Shown: positions 9,774-44,665, counted from the stretch's first letter. The stretch is DNA of 64,000 bases from Patescibacteria group bacterium (GCA_038061695.1 JBBTYT010000001.1:1339-65338); one strand, 5' to 3'. A program made the numbers and translations. The notes: a model not told the origin generated them from the letters alone.

Positions 9774-10979
9774 ATGTTATTTAAATACGAAGCAAAAACA
9801 TATCAAGGTGAAACAAAGAATGGGACGATTGAAGCATCATCACAGAGTATTGCTGTTGACATACTACAAAAAAGCGATTTAATACTTCTTGATATTGTTG
9901 AGGCGTCAGATATTTCATTAGCTACAAAAAAGCTTAAGTTTTTTGAACATATTCCAAAGAAAGAAGTTTTTATGTTTTCTCGCCAGCTTTCTGTTTTATT
10001 TGAAGCTAAGGTTCCTGTTGTGGAATCTTTACGCACAATGATTGATCAAACAAGAAGCGTAGCATTTAAAGAGATTTTGGAAAAAGTAACAAAGAGCGTT
10101 AATGATGGAAATCCTTTATCAAAATCTTTTGCAGAACATAAAAAAGTTTTTTCTGATTTTTATATAAGCATTGTGAAGTCTGGTGAGCTTTCAGGAAATC
10201 TTGAAACCGTTTTCTCTTATTTAGCCGAGTCTCTTGAAAGAGATTATTATTTAACACAAAAAGTCAGAGGCGCAATGATTTATCCCGCATTTATTATATT
10301 TGCAATGATTGCCGTTACATTTGTGATGATGATTTGGGTTATTCCTAATCTTACTTCTGTTTTTACAGAATCAAATATGGAGTTGCCTTTTTTAACTCAA
10401 ATTATAGTTAATATATCAGATGTATTTCAAGAGTTTTGGTGGTTAATACTTTTTGTTTTGGTTGGTGGAGCGACTGGTTTTTGGCAGTGGGTATCAACTG
10501 AAAATGGTAAAATGATCTGGGGCTCAATCCAGCTTGAAATACCAGTTTTTGGCGAGATTTTAACAAAATTTTATCTTGCAAGATTCTCAGATTCTTTAAG
10601 CACATTAATAGTCGGTGGATTGCCAATTGTAAAATCACTAGAGACTTCTGCTGATGTCGTAGGTAATTATACATATAAAAAAATCTTAAGAGAGACTATT
10701 GATGTTGTAAAAAAAGGAGGAACTATAAGTTCAGTTTTTAGAAGATATAAAGAAGTTCCAATTATGGTTACTCAAATGATTTCAATAGGTGAGCAAGCAG
10801 GTAAGCTGGATGGCACATTGAAGACAATTTCTAAATTTTATAGCAAGGAAGTTGAGAGTGCTATGGATAATATGGTGACATTAATAGAGCCATTACTTAT
10901 TTTGGTGTTAGGAACAGGAGTAGGAATATTGATAGTCGCAATTTTAATGCCGATGTATAATCTTACCGCCGCTATATAG
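9774..10979 (+). CDS. pilC: Type IV pilus platform protein PilC (GspF family)
   Basis: 401 aa with duplicated GspF-like halves, three TM segments, C-terminal ILMPMYNL. Confidence 0.8.
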   Translation: MLFKYEAKTYQGETKNGTIEASSQSIAVDILQKSDLILLDIVEASDISLATKKLKFFEHIPKKEVFMFSRQLSVLFEAKVPVVESLRTMIDQTRSVAFKEILEKVTKSVNDGNPLSKSFAEHKKVFSDFYISIVKSGELSGNLETVFSYLAESLERDYYLTQKVRGAMIYPAFIIFAMIAVTFVMMIWVIPNLTSVFTESNMELPFLTQIIVNISDVFQEFWWLILFVLVGGATGFWQWVSTENGKMIWGSIQLEIPVFGEILTKFYLARFSDSLSTLIVGGLPIVKSLETSADVVGNYTYKKILRETIDVVKKGGTISSVFRRYKEVPIMVTQMISIGEQAGKLDGTLKTISKFYSKEVESAMDNMVTLIEPLLILVLGTGVGILIVAILMPMYNLTAAI

Positions 10980-11020
10980 TTTTTAGGTTATAGTTGCTAG
11001 GTTTTAGTTGTTAAAAATTT

Positions 11021-11389
11021 ATGGTTAAAATTAACTCTTATAAAGATTTAATCGTATGGCAAAGGTCTATGCAATTAGTTGAAAATATTTATAAAATAAC
11101 TGAGAAATTTCCCAAAGAAGAAATTTATGGTCTGACTGCGCAAATGAGAAGATCTGCCGTATCAATTCCTTCAAACATAGCAGAAGGAAGTTGTAGGGGA
11201 ACAAGAAAGGATTACGCGCAATTTTTAAGAATGGCATATGGATCTGGCGCTGAGCTTGAAACACAAATAGAGATAGCAAAAAGATTACTAGGAAAACAAA
11301 AAATTGATTATTCTGACGTTGATAAATTTTTAGATGAAGTAATGAAGATGCTTAATTCTTTAATAAAAAGACTAACCACCAACATCTAA
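11021..11389 (+). CDS. Four-helix-bundle protein (TIGR02436 / 23S rRNA intervening-sequence protein family)
   Basis: YKDLIVWQRSMQLVENIYKIT...EEIYGLTAQMRRSAVSIPSNIAEGSCRG...AYGSGAELETQIEIA is a near-textbook match to the family consensus. The gene is flanked by inverted repeats 10981-11012 and 11388-11424. Confidence 0.85.
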   Translation: MVKINSYKDLIVWQRSMQLVENIYKITEKFPKEEIYGLTAQMRRSAVSIPSNIAEGSCRGTRKDYAQFLRMAYGSGAELETQIEIAKRLLGKQKIDYSDVDKFLDEVMKMLNSLIKRLTTNI

Positions 11390-11542
11390 CAACTAAAACC
11401 TAGAACCTAAAATCTAGCACCTAGTGAAAGAGTTATTCACAGCTGTATTCAATTTAAAGTTGTTAAAATAAATATTTACTTGTATAATATATGAATATGA
11501 TAAATAAATAATTTATTCAAGGTCGAAAGTTAATCAAATCTT

Positions 11543-12168: not shown

Positions 12169-12846
12169 ATGAAATATAATATTTTAAAGATGACATTTTT
12201 AATAACTTCTTTTGCTATGCTTTCATTTGTCGGCGCTATCTTAATTAAAAATTCCTACGCTCAGTGGGTTGGCCCCACTGGCGCGCCTCCATCAAATAAT
12301 ACATTGCCCTCTTTAAATACAGGAATTACAGATCAGATAAAAACAGGCGGTTTAACAGTTGGAAGATTAAACACATCAGGGAATATAACTGCAGGCGGAA
12401 TTATTTGTGATTCTTCGGGGTGTATAAATTCTTCTGCTTTAGAAGCAGATCCAACAGTTCTCGCATCTGTTAAAGATGGAGTATCTTGGGCTGAGCTTGC
12501 AACTGTTCCAGCAGGTTTCTTAGATGGTATTGATAATGTTGGAGCAGTTGTCGCAGAAACAGATCCAACAGTTCTCGCATCTGTTAAAGATGGAGTATCT
12601 TGGGCTGAGCTTGCAACTGTTCCAGCAGGTTTCTTAGATGGTATTGATAATGTTGGAGCAGTTACTCTCAATAGTGTTGGAACTAATGAAGTTATTGATG
12701 GCTCTCTAATGATGTCAGATATGAATGCCACGGTTATTCAGGCTAGAATTTCGGGTACTTGTTTATCAGGTATTTCCGTTGTGAATTCAAATGGAACCGT
12801 TGGTTGTGTAGTGGCTGGTTCATCGGAAGCTGTTTACGCTCCATAA
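12169..12846 (+). CDS. Secreted hypothetical protein containing a perfect 38-aa tandem duplication
   Basis: Signal peptide MTFLITSFAMLSFVGAILI. DPTVLASVKDGVSWAELATVPAGFLDGIDNVGAV occurs twice (nt 12448-12549 and 12562-12663, identical). Minus-strand ORF 12333-12731 is its antisense shadow. Confidence 0.6.
   Translation: MKYNILKMTFLITSFAMLSFVGAILIKNSYAQWVGPTGAPPSNNTLPSLNTGITDQIKTGGLTVGRLNTSGNITAGGIICDSSGCINSSALEADPTVLASVKDGVSWAELATVPAGFLDGIDNVGAVVAETDPTVLASVKDGVSWAELATVPAGFLDGIDNVGAVTLNSVGTNEVIDGSLMMSDMNATVIQARISGTCLSGISVVNSNGTVGCVVAGSSEAVYAP
12448..12663 (+). repeat. Two identical 102-bp copies in direct tandem with a 114-bp period (12-bp spacer)
   Basis: The 102-bp unit GATCCAACAGTTCTCGCATCTG...GTTGGAGCAGTT is repeated with 100 percent identity. 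Confidence 0.85.
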
Positions 12847-15943: not shown

Positions 15944-16540
15944 ATGCAAAATCTAAAATCTAAAACCTATAACCTAAAACCTAGCGAGGGCTTTACATTG
16001 ATAGAAATTATAATTGCCTCAGCGGTAATAGCTATAGTTTCTATTATAACTGTAGTTAAGGTAGGTACTGGAAATCAGGAACAGGCACTTTTAAGATCTG
16101 CTCAAAAGCTCGCGTTAGATCTAAGGAGGGCTCAAAATTTAGCACTTTCTCCATTAACTACTGATAATTGTGTTTATGGTGTTACAGGAAAAACGACCAG
16201 TTCTGATAGCTATATTCTTTATGTGGCAACTAGCACATGCGACTCTTTTAGTGATAGGAGCTTCCCAAACACCGGCTCTTATAGCGTCTGTAATGTTGAT
16301 GATGGTTGTCTTGGTAGGTATGAATTTGAGGACGGTGTTGTATTACAGACGGGTAATAATTTTGATATTTCATTTCTTCCTCCAGAACCAATATCTCTTT
16401 CTAATGGCAGAACTGCTGGTCCGCCTGGTTCTGCTTTCAATCCTGGAGGAATAGAAACAATCACCATTAGGTTAGCTAATAATATTGCAAGAGAAAAAAA
16501 AGTAGTAGTAAATAAATTTGGAAATATTGAAATACAATAA
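15944..16540 (+). CDS. Minor pilin / pseudopilin (type IV prepilin-like)
   Basis: Leader MQNLKSKTYNLKPSEG then FTLIEIIIASAVIAIVS. The internal ORF 16170-16454 is an artifact. Confidence 0.7.
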   Translation: MQNLKSKTYNLKPSEGFTLIEIIIASAVIAIVSIITVVKVGTGNQEQALLRSAQKLALDLRRAQNLALSPLTTDNCVYGVTGKTTSSDSYILYVATSTCDSFSDRSFPNTGSYSVCNVDDGCLGRYEFEDGVVLQTGNNFDISFLPPEPISLSNGRTAGPPGSAFNPGGIETITIRLANNIAREKKVVVNKFGNIEIQ

Positions 16541-16578
16541 ACGAGGTTTTAGGTTATAGCTTTTAGCTTATAGAATTT

Positions 16579-17145
16579 ATGAAAAAAATTATATTAAAAT
16601 TTAATAAAACTCTAAAACCTAAAACCTATAACCTAAAATCTAATAGGGGTTTTACTATAGTTGAATCCTTGGTTGCTATAACTATTTTGACTGTTGGCGT
16701 GTCAGCCTCAATAGGAGCTATAATGAGCTCTATTCAACTAGTCTCTAAGACAGAAAATAGAACAATAGCTGTTGGTTTGGCGCAAGAGGGTGTTGAGATT
16801 GTAAGAAATATGAGAGATTTAAATTGGATAGATGGCAATACGCCATGGGATTTGGGGTTAACTGATGATATATTAATCAGTGGTGGTTTCAAAACAGGAT
16901 GCGTTGAGTTTGATAGCGTCTCGTTTGATGTTAATTGTGTTGTCGGCACTTCTTATACTATGAAGCTTATTGATAATGCTGGTAATTTATATTACGGACA
17001 TGATCAATTGAGTCCGGCTACTATATTTTCAAGAACGATTACCTTAACAAGGATCAGCGCTGATGAGATTGTAGTGCGATCTTTGGTTGCTTGTGGAGTG
17101 AATTGCAATATTTCTGTAGAGGAACATTTATTTAATTGGCAGTAG
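16579..17145 (+). CDS. Minor pilin / pseudopilin
   Basis: Leader ...LKPKTYNLKSNRG then FTIVESLVAITILTVGVSA. Confidence 0.7.
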   Translation: MKKIILKFNKTLKPKTYNLKSNRGFTIVESLVAITILTVGVSASIGAIMSSIQLVSKTENRTIAVGLAQEGVEIVRNMRDLNWIDGNTPWDLGLTDDILISGGFKTGCVEFDSVSFDVNCVVGTSYTMKLIDNAGNLYYGHDQLSPATIFSRTITLTRISADEIVVRSLVACGVNCNISVEEHLFNWQ

Positions 17146-36191: not shown

Positions 36192-37403
36192 CTATTTTTT
36201 AAGAAGTAATTTATTACGAATCTTAGAAAAAATACATAAGATATCTCCAAGTGGAATATCTTTCCAGTACTCATCAACGATTATACTTTTACCAAGCTCA
36301 ACTAAATCAAATTGAGAAAAATATGGTGTCTCAGCAGGATTAATCTGCATAGGCCATCTAATTTCATCATTTGAAGCTACGAGACGCATATCATTTCTCT
36401 CTTTACTTGTTAGAGAGCCGTTATCGTGAGCTACCAAAAGTCGACGATGCATAATTTCCTCTGATGGATGATCTTTGATGTAGCCGATTCGAGCCACTGT
36501 TCCCATTGGCATATGTACTGTGATATTTTTTGGTATCAGAGCAGGGCTCCACTTGCGTAAGTGTTGAAGCATTAAAGATAAAGAATTTTGATATTCTTTA
36601 CGGGTTGCGTAATGAATCATATCTGGTCCAGAAATATCATACCGATGAGTTTCGCCTGTCTTCCAATAATATACTAACATATTTGAAAGTATAGATATTG
36701 GTCCGTTATAACAAACACCGCCATGAGTAATTATTGGTTCATCAGAAAAGAGTAAGTTATCAAGCTCACTTAAAAGATTAATAAATGAGCTTGCAAGATG
36801 CTTGCTATTAATAATTAAAGTCCTTTCCTCTTCTTCTTTCGGCATAAGAGAGAAATCCGGATGAAACTCTGCAGAATTATTACTGCTTTTGAGCGGTACC
36901 ATGATACCTTTATCAGAAATATATCTTGTAAACACTTTTTCTGGACATGTATGAGCAAGATACTCAAACATTTCACTGATTTTTTCTTTCTCGGAAAGTA
37001 AAAGTCGTGAACAAGATGATAATGTCGGAGAGAAAGATTGTTGCATAGCTTGAACATGAATACGACCCAACTTTTGACCAAGATGTTCAGACATATCTGA
37101 TTTCAAGTATGCTGTAACATATCTATGTTCGGAAGTGGCGGTAGAGTCAATGCTCTTAATGGTCTCTTCACTCAAAAGCGGAATAGACTCGCCATTAACA
37201 AGTTTGTGTTTTGGCCAGTTATTTTTATCCGCTTTTGCGCAAGTTATATCCCATAGATTTTCCTGAATACCACAAGACCAGAGGGAACTCTTATATAAAG
37301 AAGCATTCCCTGGGTGACTCGTTAGAGTAACAGGTATGCCAGATGCTTGAAGGCTTAAAAGATCATTGATTGATAAATCACGGTTAGGCATAATCTTAAT
37401 CAT
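36192..37403 (-). CDS. Hypothetical protein
   Basis: Start set at MIKIMPNRDL with a GGAG SD (the track ORF extends to 37475). Hairpin terminator AACCGCC...GGCGGTT at about 36150-36180 downstream. Minus ORF 36815-37081 is in another frame and rejected. Confidence 0.45.
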   Translation of the reverse strand: MIKIMPNRDLSINDLLSLQASGIPVTLTSHPGNASLYKSSLWSCGIQENLWDITCAKADKNNWPKHKLVNGESIPLLSEETIKSIDSTATSEHRYVTAYLKSDMSEHLGQKLGRIHVQAMQQSFSPTLSSCSRLLLSEKEKISEMFEYLAHTCPEKVFTRYISDKGIMVPLKSSNNSAEFHPDFSLMPKEEEERTLIINSKHLASSFINLLSELDNLLFSDEPIITHGGVCYNGPISILSNMLVYYWKTGETHRYDISGPDMIHYATRKEYQNSLSLMLQHLRKWSPALIPKNITVHMPMGTVARIGYIKDHPSEEIMHRRLLVAHDNGSLTSKERNDMRLVASNDEIRWPMQINPAETPYFSQFDLVELGKSIIVDEYWKDIPLGDILCIFSKIRNKLLLKK

Positions 37404-37651
37404 GATGATTCTCCGTATGAATAGATAAAAAGAACAAAAATAGACCCTTCTTTCAGGGTCTATTTTTATCTTCATTTTTTGTATCTGTAACTTAGATTAG
37501 ATATCTCTTGAAATAAAAGCAAAAATAGGCCCTGAAAAAAGGGTCCAATAATGCATAAACATATTATTTTGTAATTTTTGCAATGACATAATTTAACTAT
37601 ATATAGAAAAAAGTAACTTGTCAAATGATTTTTTTTAAATTATTATAGATA

Positions 37652-37807
37652 GACCTACCACTCAATAACTTTCGTAGCGAAGCTTTTAAATAACGAGCGA
37701 GACGAAGCAAAAAAATAGAGTAATAATGGTTTTATTATGATATTTTTTTGTAAAGTCGTAGCCGTTATTTGAAAATTGTAGTAGAAAGGTTATTGAGTGG
37801 TAGGTCT
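37652..37807. repeat. Long inverted repeat (23-bp perfect core within about 45-bp imperfect arms, about 110-bp spacer) immediately upstream of the M15 peptidase gene
   Basis: AGACCTACCACTCAATAACTTTC at 37652-37674 and GAAAGGTTATTGAGTGGTAGGTCT at 37784-37807. The arms extend imperfectly (CGTTATTTAAAAGCTTCGCTACG / CGTAGCCGTTATTTGAAAA). Confidence 0.8.
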
Positions 37808-37812
37808 AAAAT

Positions 37813-38400
37813 ATGGAACAAATAATATTAGATAGTCAGTTGCCAAAAGAGGAGATATTAAAGCAGAATCCAAATATGCCTGCTCCGTTAGATGTTATAG
37901 ATAATTTAGAGATCATAACTCTTATTTATTATGGATTTGATTCTATTCTGCATCAAGGTCAGATGGTAATGCATAAAAAAGCAGTTAATGACTTAAAAGC
38001 ATTTTTTCAGTTAGCTTTCAAAATAAAATTTCCCATTGAGAAAGTGATACCGATAGCATATAAAAAGTATAAATGGAATGATGATCTATCATGTAATGAT
38101 AATAACTCGTCAGGTTATAATTTTCGTTTTATAGCAGGAACAAATAGAATGTCAAAACATGCGCTTGGTCTTGCGTTTGATATAAATCCGGCGCAAAATC
38201 CGTATATTAGATATAACGAAAAGAAAGAAGAAGTATTTAGAGCCCCAAGTTTTGCTTTATATGATAAGCAAAATCTTGGTACATTATACAAAGATCATCC
38301 GCTAGTTGTACTGCTAAAATCACACGGATGGGAATGGGGTGGAGATTGGGATATAGAAGGCGGAAGAATTGACTATCAGCATTTTGAGTTTTGTTTATAG
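37813..38400 (+). CDS. Peptidase M15 family (VanY / L-alanyl-D-glutamate peptidase-like) cell-wall hydrolase
   Basis: SKHALGLAFDINP (H-x6-D zinc ligands) and DYQHFE (D-x-x-H); GWEWGGDW. Confidence 0.65.
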   Translation: MEQIILDSQLPKEEILKQNPNMPAPLDVIDNLEIITLIYYGFDSILHQGQMVMHKKAVNDLKAFFQLAFKIKFPIEKVIPIAYKKYKWNDDLSCNDNNSSGYNFRFIAGTNRMSKHALGLAFDINPAQNPYIRYNEKKEEVFRAPSFALYDKQNLGTLYKDHPLVVLLKSHGWEWGGDWDIEGGRIDYQHFEFCL

Positions 38401-43807: not shown

Positions 43808-44551
43808 ATGATTGATATAAAAGTGTACGAGAGTAAAAAAGATGCACTAAACAATATATCTGATGATATAAATAAAAAGATATCAGAATTCAAAAAAAGT
43901 AATACGCCTTTATTATTTTTAATATCAGGCGGTTCGGTTCTTGAAATTTTAGATTATATAAAAAAAGATTTTTTAGGAGATTTTATGACAATTTCTGTTT
44001 TAGATGAGAGGTTTGATATTACTAATAAAAATAATAATTTTACTCAGCTTTCAGAAAGAGTGATTTATAAAGCGATGGTTTTTGCAGGAGTCAATTTTAT
44101 AGATACAAGCGTAAAGTATGGTCAAACAAAAGAAGAGTTGGCTGATTTTTTTGAAGAAGAGCTTAAGAGCTGGAACGGAAAAAAAATAAATGGTAGAATA
44201 ATAGCAATATTTGGCGTCGGTATTGATGGACATACATCTGGCATTATGCCTTTTTTCAAAGATGAGAAAAAGTTTCTGGAATTATTTGAAGGTGATAGAT
44301 GGGTTATTAGTTATGATGCGTCAGGGAAAAATCAATATTCAGAAAGAGTAACAACGACAAATACTTTTTTACGCCGTATAGATGAAGCCTTTGTATTTGT
44401 AATTGGAGAAGAAAAAAAGATGGCATTAGAAAATATGCAAAAAAATGGAAGTGTAGCGGAAGTTCCAGCGAGAATTTTAGCTGAAATTAACGCCAAGGTT
44501 TATACAAATATACTATTTAAAAACTTTGAAATTACGAAAGAGAAAGATTAA
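43808..44551 (+). CDS. pgl: 6-phosphogluconolactonase (NagB/Pgl family)
   Basis: LFLISGGSVLEIL; 247 aa; lies between gnd and pgi. Confidence 0.55.
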   Translation: MIDIKVYESKKDALNNISDDINKKISEFKKSNTPLLFLISGGSVLEILDYIKKDFLGDFMTISVLDERFDITNKNNNFTQLSERVIYKAMVFAGVNFIDTSVKYGQTKEELADFFEEELKSWNGKKINGRIIAIFGVGIDGHTSGIMPFFKDEKKFLELFEGDRWVISYDASGKNQYSERVTTTNTFLRRIDEAFVFVIGEEKKMALENMQKNGSVAEVPARILAEINAKVYTNILFKNFEITKEKD

Positions 44552-44665
44552 GGTTTTCTTACGTGTGCTCACGCTAATCTGCCGACCAGTAGATTAGCTG
44601 CGCTTACCGTTAACACTTCAGAAAACCTTAATCTTTCTCTTTCGTAATTCGAAATTAAAAAAAAG

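Follow-up and report, generated by a model that had tools for sequence, protein, structure and literature searches.

The DNA analysed here is a stretch of 64,000 nt from a Patescibacteria group bacterium (GCA_038061695.1; JBBTYT010000001.1:1339-65338), called the window in the following, which belongs to a contig of 83,711 nt. Its longest inverted repeat lies at positions 37650-37808, between the predicted promoter and the start codon of a gene for a peptidoglycan peptidase of the M15 family. The features of this locus are as follows.

37618..37646, plus strand: sigma-70-like promoter of the M15 gene, TTGTCA-N17-TATTAT, 10 of 12 positions (promoter scan; at the orthologous locus L090 it is found 6 nt ahead of the ATG)
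37650..37808, plus strand: foldback (hairpin) element of 157-159 bp, TAGACCTACCAC...GTGGTAGGTCTA (repeat geometry, folding, empty orthologous sites, family of similar hairpins)
37650..37726, plus strand: left arm, 77 nt, with a perfect basal segment at 37651-37669, AGACCTACCACTCAATAAC
37714..37740: hairpin apex, AATAGAGTAATAATGGTTTTATTATGA; short-read contigs stop at 37713 or begin at 37741
37732..37808, plus strand: right arm, 77 nt, with a perfect basal segment at 37789-37807 and a paired Shine-Dalgarno (SD)-like AGGT at 37802-37805
37813..38400, plus strand: intact gene for an M15 family (Peptidase_M15_4, CwlK/VanY-like) peptidoglycan peptidase of 195 aa (Pfam PF13539, E = 2e-18; homologues)

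An inverted-repeat search returned two arms of 77 nt each, which are 71% complementary and only 5 nt apart. The hairpin is one continuous stem-loop. The original prediction had described two arms around a 110-nt spacer, with complementarity running further outward, but this spacer is the rest of the same 159-nt stem-loop, and the complementarity runs inward. A perfect core of 23 bp had also been reported. The respective 23-mer, AGACCTACCACTCAATAACTTTC, is indeed present on the plus strand without a mismatch, far beyond chance (no match was expected from 100 shuffles), although at 37651-37673, one base away from the position first given. However, in a gapless comparison two positions of the reverse-strand partner (37785-37807) do not match, and the perfect core of the DNA is 19 bp (37651-37669 and 37789-37807), or 20 bp including the pair T37650:A37808. 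Only in RNA are 23 continuous basal pairs formed, via a shifted register that includes one G:U pair. Inside the stem, pairing has decayed to about 60%, and only the base is perfect.

Folding of the region as plus strand RNA yielded a free energy of -74.3 kcal/mol (z = -12.2), which was reached by none of 200 shuffled sequences, and -55.4 kcal/mol was obtained for the minus strand. The two strands also differed when the element was folded alone. The plus strand formed 64 pairs including 6 G:U pairs (-72.8 kcal/mol), whereas the minus strand formed 57 pairs, none of them G:U (-54.6 kcal/mol). This asymmetry fits a hairpin that is present in the sense-strand RNA.

The element does not contain a conserved open reading frame (ORF). 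The sole ORF that overlaps it is a mechanical frame of 29 codons with a TTG start on the minus strand (37621-37710). With its 157-159 bp, its lack of coding capacity and its perfect terminal inverted repeats of 19-20 bp it agrees with the description of miniature inverted-repeat transposable elements (MITEs) and foldback elements, which are non-coding, shorter than 600 bp and bounded by terminal inverted repeats. Two other types of structure were rejected. Inspection of the sequence and a scan did not reveal a T-tract after the hairpin on either strand, which excludes an intrinsic terminator, and the R'' and R' boxes of an integron attC site (RYYYAAC and GTTRRRY) were not seen by eye. Rfam at the gathering threshold, applied to the window, gave no match to the hairpin.

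The downstream gene had been recognised correctly as that of an M15 peptidoglycan peptidase, and the right arm does end 5 nt ahead of its ATG at 37813, as had been claimed. The basal stem includes the sole SD-like sequence, AGGU, in paired form, 7 nt 5' of the AUG. The encoded protein is identical to one NCBI entry, and the next relatives have identities of at most 65%. Two studies provided at least five samples whose short-read contigs encode an identical product, and the gene is conserved beside the same neighbour throughout the clade.

Orthologous loci and the gain of the hairpin

Orthologous loci were collected from GTDB genomes and by a look-up of exact proteins. At one of them, L090, the M15 protein is 65% identical, and the same uncharacterised gene of about 400 codons lies divergently upstream, as is also the case in L008, L009, L010, and L012. 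The L090 promoter is nearly identical to that of the window up to a junction, at which AACTTGTCAAATGATTATTTTAGAACTACTATAGATA is followed directly by TATGGAACAG. At the same junction of the window, TTATTATAGATA (as a longer left flank, AACTTGTCAAATGATTTTTTTTAAATTATTATAGATA) is followed by the element, which starts with GACC and ends with GGTC, and then by TAAAATATGGAACAA. The L090 site is empty, and its -10 box is 6 nt away from the ATG. In L009, L008, L012, L087, L007, and L175-177, the -10 box likewise precedes the ATG by 6-9 nt, and the hairpin is missing. The five closest M15 orthologues available (57-65% identity) all have this arrangement. Because the orthologues keep the promoter near the ATG and have no hairpin, the hairpin is a lineage-specific insertion. 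Judged from the promoter consensus, the spacing of 6-9 nt looks like that of leaderless mRNAs, and the lineage of the window seems to have gained about 157 bp exactly at the predicted +1 of a normally leaderless M15 gene.

The M15 promoter lies wholly upstream of the left arm, and the hairpin separates the -10 box from the start codon. The repeat thus does not bracket the promoter, as had been thought. The transcription start predicted from the consensus is at about 37653, 2-3 nt inside the base of the hairpin. The promoter scan did not detect a promoter-like site inside the element. The hexamer TAAAAT at 37807-37812 was considered as an outward promoter and rejected, as it touches the ATG and transcription would begin within the ORF. 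With the promoter outside the repeat, none inside it and no invertase evident near the hairpin, the invertible promoter that had been proposed earlier finds no basis; the annotated neighbours do not include an adjacent recombinase gene.

Dyad symmetry beside a promoter could also indicate an operator, at which a dimeric DNA-binding regulator would control the lytic enzyme, as the original prediction had suggested. However, the symmetry extends without a break over 159 bp, which is not operator-like, it is situated past the -10 box, it is missing in orthologues that retain the promoter, and the same termini occur in an rRNA gene and in other phyla (see below). We therefore give almost no credence to an operator.

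Related hairpins at other loci

A homologous hairpin was found in the 16S rRNA gene of a related organism. L094 and L106, which represent one locus in two assemblies (38-40% GC), contain a 159-nt copy that aligns to the window copy over its entire length. This copy is the only nucleotide similarity of these loci to the window (76% over 67 nt, E = 2.6e-7). It resides inside a bacterial small subunit rRNA gene (Rfam, 1376 bits) at the tip of helix 21, where 240 nt are present for 27 model positions. In L094 (2520-2860), an outer stem of 35 nt and the 159-nt GACCTACC hairpin are present at this site. The organism is related to that of the window, and the TrmD proteins of the two (P0245 on the contig of the window) have an identity of 80%. 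In the window genome itself, the 16S rRNA gene (in L178 at the contig end, and at 5028-5875 in L180 of a sister assembly) is devoid of the element at helix 21. There it has a different extra stem-loop of 62 nt, TCCAGTAGATAA...TTATCTGCTGGA, and 107 nt take the place of 35 model positions. A single Patescibacterial clade thus contains homologous hairpins at two kinds of site, inside the 16S rRNA gene of one genome and at the M15 start of a second one.

Metagenome contigs were searched with a pattern that specified only the termini, AGACCTACCAC-N(108-138)-GTGGTAGGTCT. It matched 15 contigs with 16 copies in addition to that of the window, and all 16 are near-perfect hairpins of 130-159 nt with free energies of -61 to -116 kcal/mol. 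They represent at least five distinct types of interior sequence, and the GC contents of the contigs range from 38% to 70%. As a rough estimate, about two chance matches would be expected if the collection is assumed to contain 10^12 bases. At least seven further copies were found beyond these 16, and those that were reached via neighbouring DUF559 genes, independently of the pattern, retain the GACCTACC core. The sequences point to a family whose termini are conserved, with the core GACCTACC...GGTAGGTC, and whose interior varies and is self-complementary almost throughout, with a total length of 130-160 nt. Several of the loci (L098, L100, L103) stem from the single assembly series JAABUZ. 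Two copies in L105 are 412 nt apart and are accompanied by nested partial arms, and nested arms are also present in L095.

According to the original prediction, a 23-mer confined to this site and without variants would have spoken against a mobile or regulatory element. This is what was found for the exact 19- and 23-mers (neither the GTDB species genomes nor the JGI metagenomes contained the 19-mer AGACCTACCACTCAATAAC), but the objection vanished when only the termini were required. Of the MITE-like cassette that had been considered, the insertion and the multi-locus family with conserved termini were borne out, the latter across metagenomes. The element does not carry a promoter.

Other collections yielded no copies. 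The termini pattern had no match in viral contigs in two length ranges, a 14-mer had 63 single-arm but no paired matches there, which were taken as chance, and a blastn search of the PLSDB plasmids with the window element and one high-GC copy was negative. Rfam at an E-value threshold retrieved only rRNA, tRNA, and spurious miRNA matches from six family loci, and a literature search for the terminal 11-mers retrieved only unrelated primer sequences. The foldback family, which is absent from Rfam and from the literature searched, appears to be undescribed.

The window copy is small, free of ORFs, bounded by terminal inverted repeats and flanked by TA on both sides, and in these respects it is similar to MITEs of the IS630/Tc1-mariner type, e.g., RUP. 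However, the other copies are not flanked by TA, which rules out an IS630-type TA target duplication, and neither a related transposase nor an autonomous insertion sequence was found.

The apex of the hairpin showed an irregularity. In at least five samples, which belong to two studies, the short-read contigs (Logan) stop at 37713 or begin at 37741, whereas contigs of the same samples pass unbroken through another long hairpin of the window (44525-44654). This suggests apex heterogeneity. The right break at 37741 coincides with the inner edge of a 10-bp inverted repeat of the apex, CAAAAAAATA and TATTTTTTTG (37708-37717 and 37741-37750). A simple flip of the apex was rejected as the cause, because it predicts breaks at 37717 and 37741, and the observed left break is 4 nt short of that. 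The 60-nt flanks of L093 and L098 are identical on either side, but their asymmetric apexes are reverse complements of each other (score of 36.5 when reverse-complemented versus 1.5 forward), and therefore family members invert in place or re-insert. The contig breaks, the position of the right break and the reversed apexes would be in line with a switch at the DNA level, i.e., with a hot spot of recombination or inversion (apex flip-flop or cruciform extrusion) that generates population heterogeneity at the M15 promoter. Yet the promoter is outside the repeat and would not be switched off by flipping, inversion of the apex hardly alters the RNA, the left break deviates from the simple-flip prediction, a recombinase gene is not adjacent, and an effect of sequencing or assembly at the AT-rich apex is possible. 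A DNA-level switch is thus very improbable.

Small DUF559 genes were found next to several family hairpins. L093, L098, and L105, which represent one orthologous locus with about 60% GC, contain a DUF559 gene (PF04480, E = 1e-34) with family hairpins on both sides. Additional homologues (L171-L174) were then collected independently of any DNA pattern. The DUF559 proteins of L171 (78% identity, exosortase/PqqD neighbourhood), L172 (74%, DUF3084 locus), and L173 (64%, MurB neighbourhood) are likewise encoded by genes that have, within 150 nt, flanking hairpins with the ends nGACCTACCnC...GnGGTAGGTCn. DUF559 genes together with family hairpins are thus present at three non-orthologous loci, i.e., L171, L173, and the locus represented by L093, L098, L105, and L172. 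In contrast, a 64% identical homologue from another genome (L174) is flanked by unrelated inverted repeats of 36 nt. The positions are:

L093 6013-6741; L098 552-1327; L105 2324-3065: hairpin-flanked small DUF559 (Vsr-like endonuclease) genes of high-GC bacteria
L171 2249-2960; L172 2321-3063; L173 2296-3045: further genes of the same kind, also from high-GC bacteria
L174 2359-2990: DUF559 gene with unrelated repeats on both sides

L171 also contains four tandem copies of the terminal 22-mer GCGGGGAGGTAGGTCTCTTAAC.

A literature search on DUF559 retrieved nothing about an association with repeats. The arrangement resembles that of REPINs and their RAYTs: long hairpins are built from two inverted terminal modules, with conserved ends, a variable middle and no target duplication, and copies flank a single small nuclease gene, which in the present family is DUF559 and is found in other phyla. 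It differs in that the flanked gene encodes a Vsr-like PD-(D/E)XK protein instead of an HUH/Y1 RAYT, and in that the GTAG motif is present (within GGTAGG) at the outer 3' end of the stem and not 5' of a 25-nt REP. In addition, neither a DUF559 nor a RAYT gene was seen in the window. A far-reaching possibility is that the undescribed, cross-phylum family with GACCTACC...GGTAGGTC ends is spread by DUF559 endonucleases in a REPIN/RAYT-like manner and colonises essential transcribed sites, such as 16S rRNA helices and the +1 of leaderless genes, since the RNase III of the host clears it from the RNA. At least some intervening sequences (IVSs) of rRNA genes would then be ordinary mobile DNA. We regard this extended scenario as conceivable but doubtful.

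Proposed transcription and fate of the hairpin

Because the element has neither a promoter of its own nor a terminator tail, it would be co-transcribed from the resident promoter. The transcript would then begin with a 5'-terminal RNA hairpin of about 64 bp, which would end 5 nt before the AUG and hide the sole SD-like sequence. We hypothesize that RNase III of the host trims the hairpin from the RNA, as it does with the IVSs of rRNAs. Cleavage would free the AGGU and would leave an mRNA with a short leader. A continuous helix of 23 pairs is a canonical and sufficient length for an RNase III substrate. A tblastn search did not find an rnc gene in the window, but an RNase III gene is present on the same contig (L178 6096-6782; TIGR02191, 243 bits versus a cut-off of 166). 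Trimming by RNase III is most likely the reason why the M15 gene tolerates the hairpin. Taken together, we consider it probable that the hairpin is a single copy of a non-autonomous foldback mobile element, restricted to this lineage, which was placed between the -10 box and the M15 start codon, is co-transcribed as a 5' hairpin and is likely trimmed by RNase III.

Genes for rRNA of the candidate phyla radiation (CPR) carry many short (<200 bp), ORF-less, uncharacterised insertions, which have been suggested to be RNase III-cleaved IVSs that are spread horizontally (PMC11270868). The window element has several features in common with such IVSs, which are extended stem-loops of about 100-200 nt within transcribed RNA, occur sporadically, are apparently spread horizontally and are tolerated through excision by RNase III. 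This enzyme is encoded on the contig of the window, and the homologous copy in the related Patescibacterium occupies the helix 21 tip in the 16S rRNA gene. The difference is that the window copy is at the 5' end of an mRNA and not in an rRNA, and that its cleavage is what we infer. To our knowledge, no IVS family has been described that also lands outside of rRNA genes or that has common termini across phyla.

The best functional analogy is provided by the Correia elements (CREE/NEMIS) of Neisseria. According to De Gregorio, Di Nocera and colleagues, these palindromic, non-autonomous elements of about 100-160 bp are located near gene starts and are reportedly co-transcribed and cleaved by RNase III, with an effect on the mRNA level. 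Correia elements have terminal inverted repeats of 26 bp, a TA duplication, binding sites for integration host factor and promoter boxes, and they occur in hundreds of copies and only in Neisseria. The window element is not similar to them in sequence and has the termini AGACCTACCAC. It contains no promoter, its family shows no consistent TA duplication, one copy was seen in 75 kb, and its host belongs to the Patescibacteria.

Hiding of the ribosome-binding region in a helix is also typical for RNA thermometers and translational riboswitches. The hairpin might therefore have evolved or been exapted as a dedicated cis-regulatory RNA of the lytic M15 enzyme, which would work like a thermometer or a riboswitch or be acted upon by a helicase or a small RNA. 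The paired AGGU 7 nt before the AUG, the six G:U pairs that are formed by the sense strand only, and the intact gene that is identical across at least five samples would be compatible with this view, and the claim of the original prediction that the start region is sequestered was correct insofar as the 3' arm buries the SD-like AGGU. However, the hairpin is not conserved with the gene, but is missing from every orthologous locus examined, and homologous elements occur in a 16S rRNA gene and at unrelated intergenic sites in other phyla. In addition, with about -73 kcal/mol and a basal helix of 23 bp it cannot melt at physiological temperature, its stability being an order of magnitude too high for a thermometer or riboswitch, and it contains no conserved internal loop that resembles a ligand pocket or an aptamer-like core and had no match in Rfam. 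A dedicated regulatory RNA is therefore improbable.

A real alternative, albeit an unlikely one, is that the insertion is an inert and decaying remnant that cripples or silences a dispensable M15 gene, without any RNA processing or regulation. In favour of this view, the interior of the stem is only about 60% paired while the base is perfect, the insertion has destroyed a leaderless start that is conserved in relatives, and a single copy was seen in the 75 kb of this genome. On the other hand, the M15 gene has an intact ORF, at least five samples of two studies agree in its product, and it has been kept beside the same neighbour across the clade. Furthermore, an RNase III gene is present in the genome, and an essential rRNA tolerates a homologous element.

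Several points weigh against a mobile element that is trimmed by RNase III. The transcription start was derived from a consensus prediction, and cleavage of the hairpin is an inferred step. The 6:0 asymmetry of G:U pairs could reflect strand-biased C-to-T mutation, as the GC skew is strongly positive in this region. As the nearest orthologue is only 65% identical, the insertion is not datable, and a deletion in all other lineages is formally possible, although unparsimonious. The flanks of 17 copies did not reveal a common target-site duplication, and within 75 kb (the window and L178) only one copy is present. The similarity to the high-GC copies is confined to the termini used in the search and to the overall architecture. 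Lastly, an autonomous partner of the element was not identified, and tblastn did not find a DUF559 gene in the window.

If the proposed explanation is true, two related Patescibacteria have the same hairpin element, one as a 16S rRNA IVS and the other as an insertion where a protein gene begins, and the unexplained short insertions in CPR rRNA genes are tied to mobile DNA. The M15 locus would then serve as a natural experiment, in unculturable organisms, for leaderless translation and for trimming by RNase III. The association of the family with DUF559 genes would also offer a function that can be tested for this very large group of uncharacterised domains. If only the conservative part holds, the element is another palindromic insertion, of local interest for genome annotation.

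Surroundings of the M15 gene

The 340 bp upstream of the M15 gene had been described as free of ORFs. They contain, however, a conserved ORF of 30 codons on the minus strand and two conserved hairpins, which precede a divergent gene for a conserved, uncharacterised protein of 403 aa (36192-37403; leader region 37404-37624, minus strand):

37596..37624, minus strand: divergent promoter, TTGACA-N17-TATAGT, 11 of 12 positions, not part of the element (promoter scan; conserved in L090 and L009)
37497..37589, minus strand: conserved leader ORF of 30 codons, MSLQKLQNNMFMHYWTLFSGPIFAFISRDI, which starts 6 nt past the minus strand -10 box
37523-37545, minus strand: hairpin T2, inside the leader ORF, conserved
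37433-37470, minus strand: hairpin T1, strong and terminator-like, before the 403-aa gene, conserved

The divergent promoter and the M15 promoter use one -35 hexamer in common. The sequence of this joint hexamer (37618-37624) is palindrome-like (TTGTCAA / TTGACAA) and is conserved in L008, L009, and L090. Both divergent transcripts, i.e., those of the M15 gene and of the leader ORF, appear to be leaderless. The 403-aa protein had no match in Pfam, NCBIfam or the PDB.

The arrangement of the leader was found in the window and in L008, L009, L010, L011, L012, and L090. The leader ORF has 28-33 codons across the genomes, and the C-terminal motif W..P[ILV]FAF[IVM] is common to five of them. T2 and T1 have similar 3' halves in every genome compared. 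The two hairpins can also pair with one another, and RNAalifold applied to seven genomes selected the T2:T1 pairing, with compensatory changes in 13 of 28 pairs. The two hairpins and the leader ORF look like a leader-peptide transcription attenuator of the 403-aa gene, and this candidate attenuator is not in Rfam.

The genes in the neighbourhood encode a sigma factor, a pilin, a HAMP protein, and UPF0182. At the orthologous locus with a 64% identical M15 protein (L175 3201-5412, L176, and L177), a reverse transcriptase (RVT_1) and a bAvd-like accessory protein are encoded downstream, which suggests a diversity-generating retroelement.

The window contains a second, unrelated near-perfect hairpin of 130 nt at 44525-44654 (42-nt arms, 90% complementary, -64.5 kcal/mol), between a 6-phosphogluconolactonase-like gene and pgi. 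The upstream gene ends within its left arm, from which it takes its final codons and its stop, as would be expected if this hairpin were a palindromic insertion as well. In addition, inverted arrays of the heptamer AGGTTTT/AAAACCT and its variants are located at 10975-11027 and 11373-11423, at 15948-15983, and at 16544-16643, and one inverted pair of these arrays flanks an ORF of 122 aa (11021-11389). Lastly, a tandem duplication with a unit of 114 nt (2.0 copies, 99% identity) is present at 12441-12663, presumably within a coding region.

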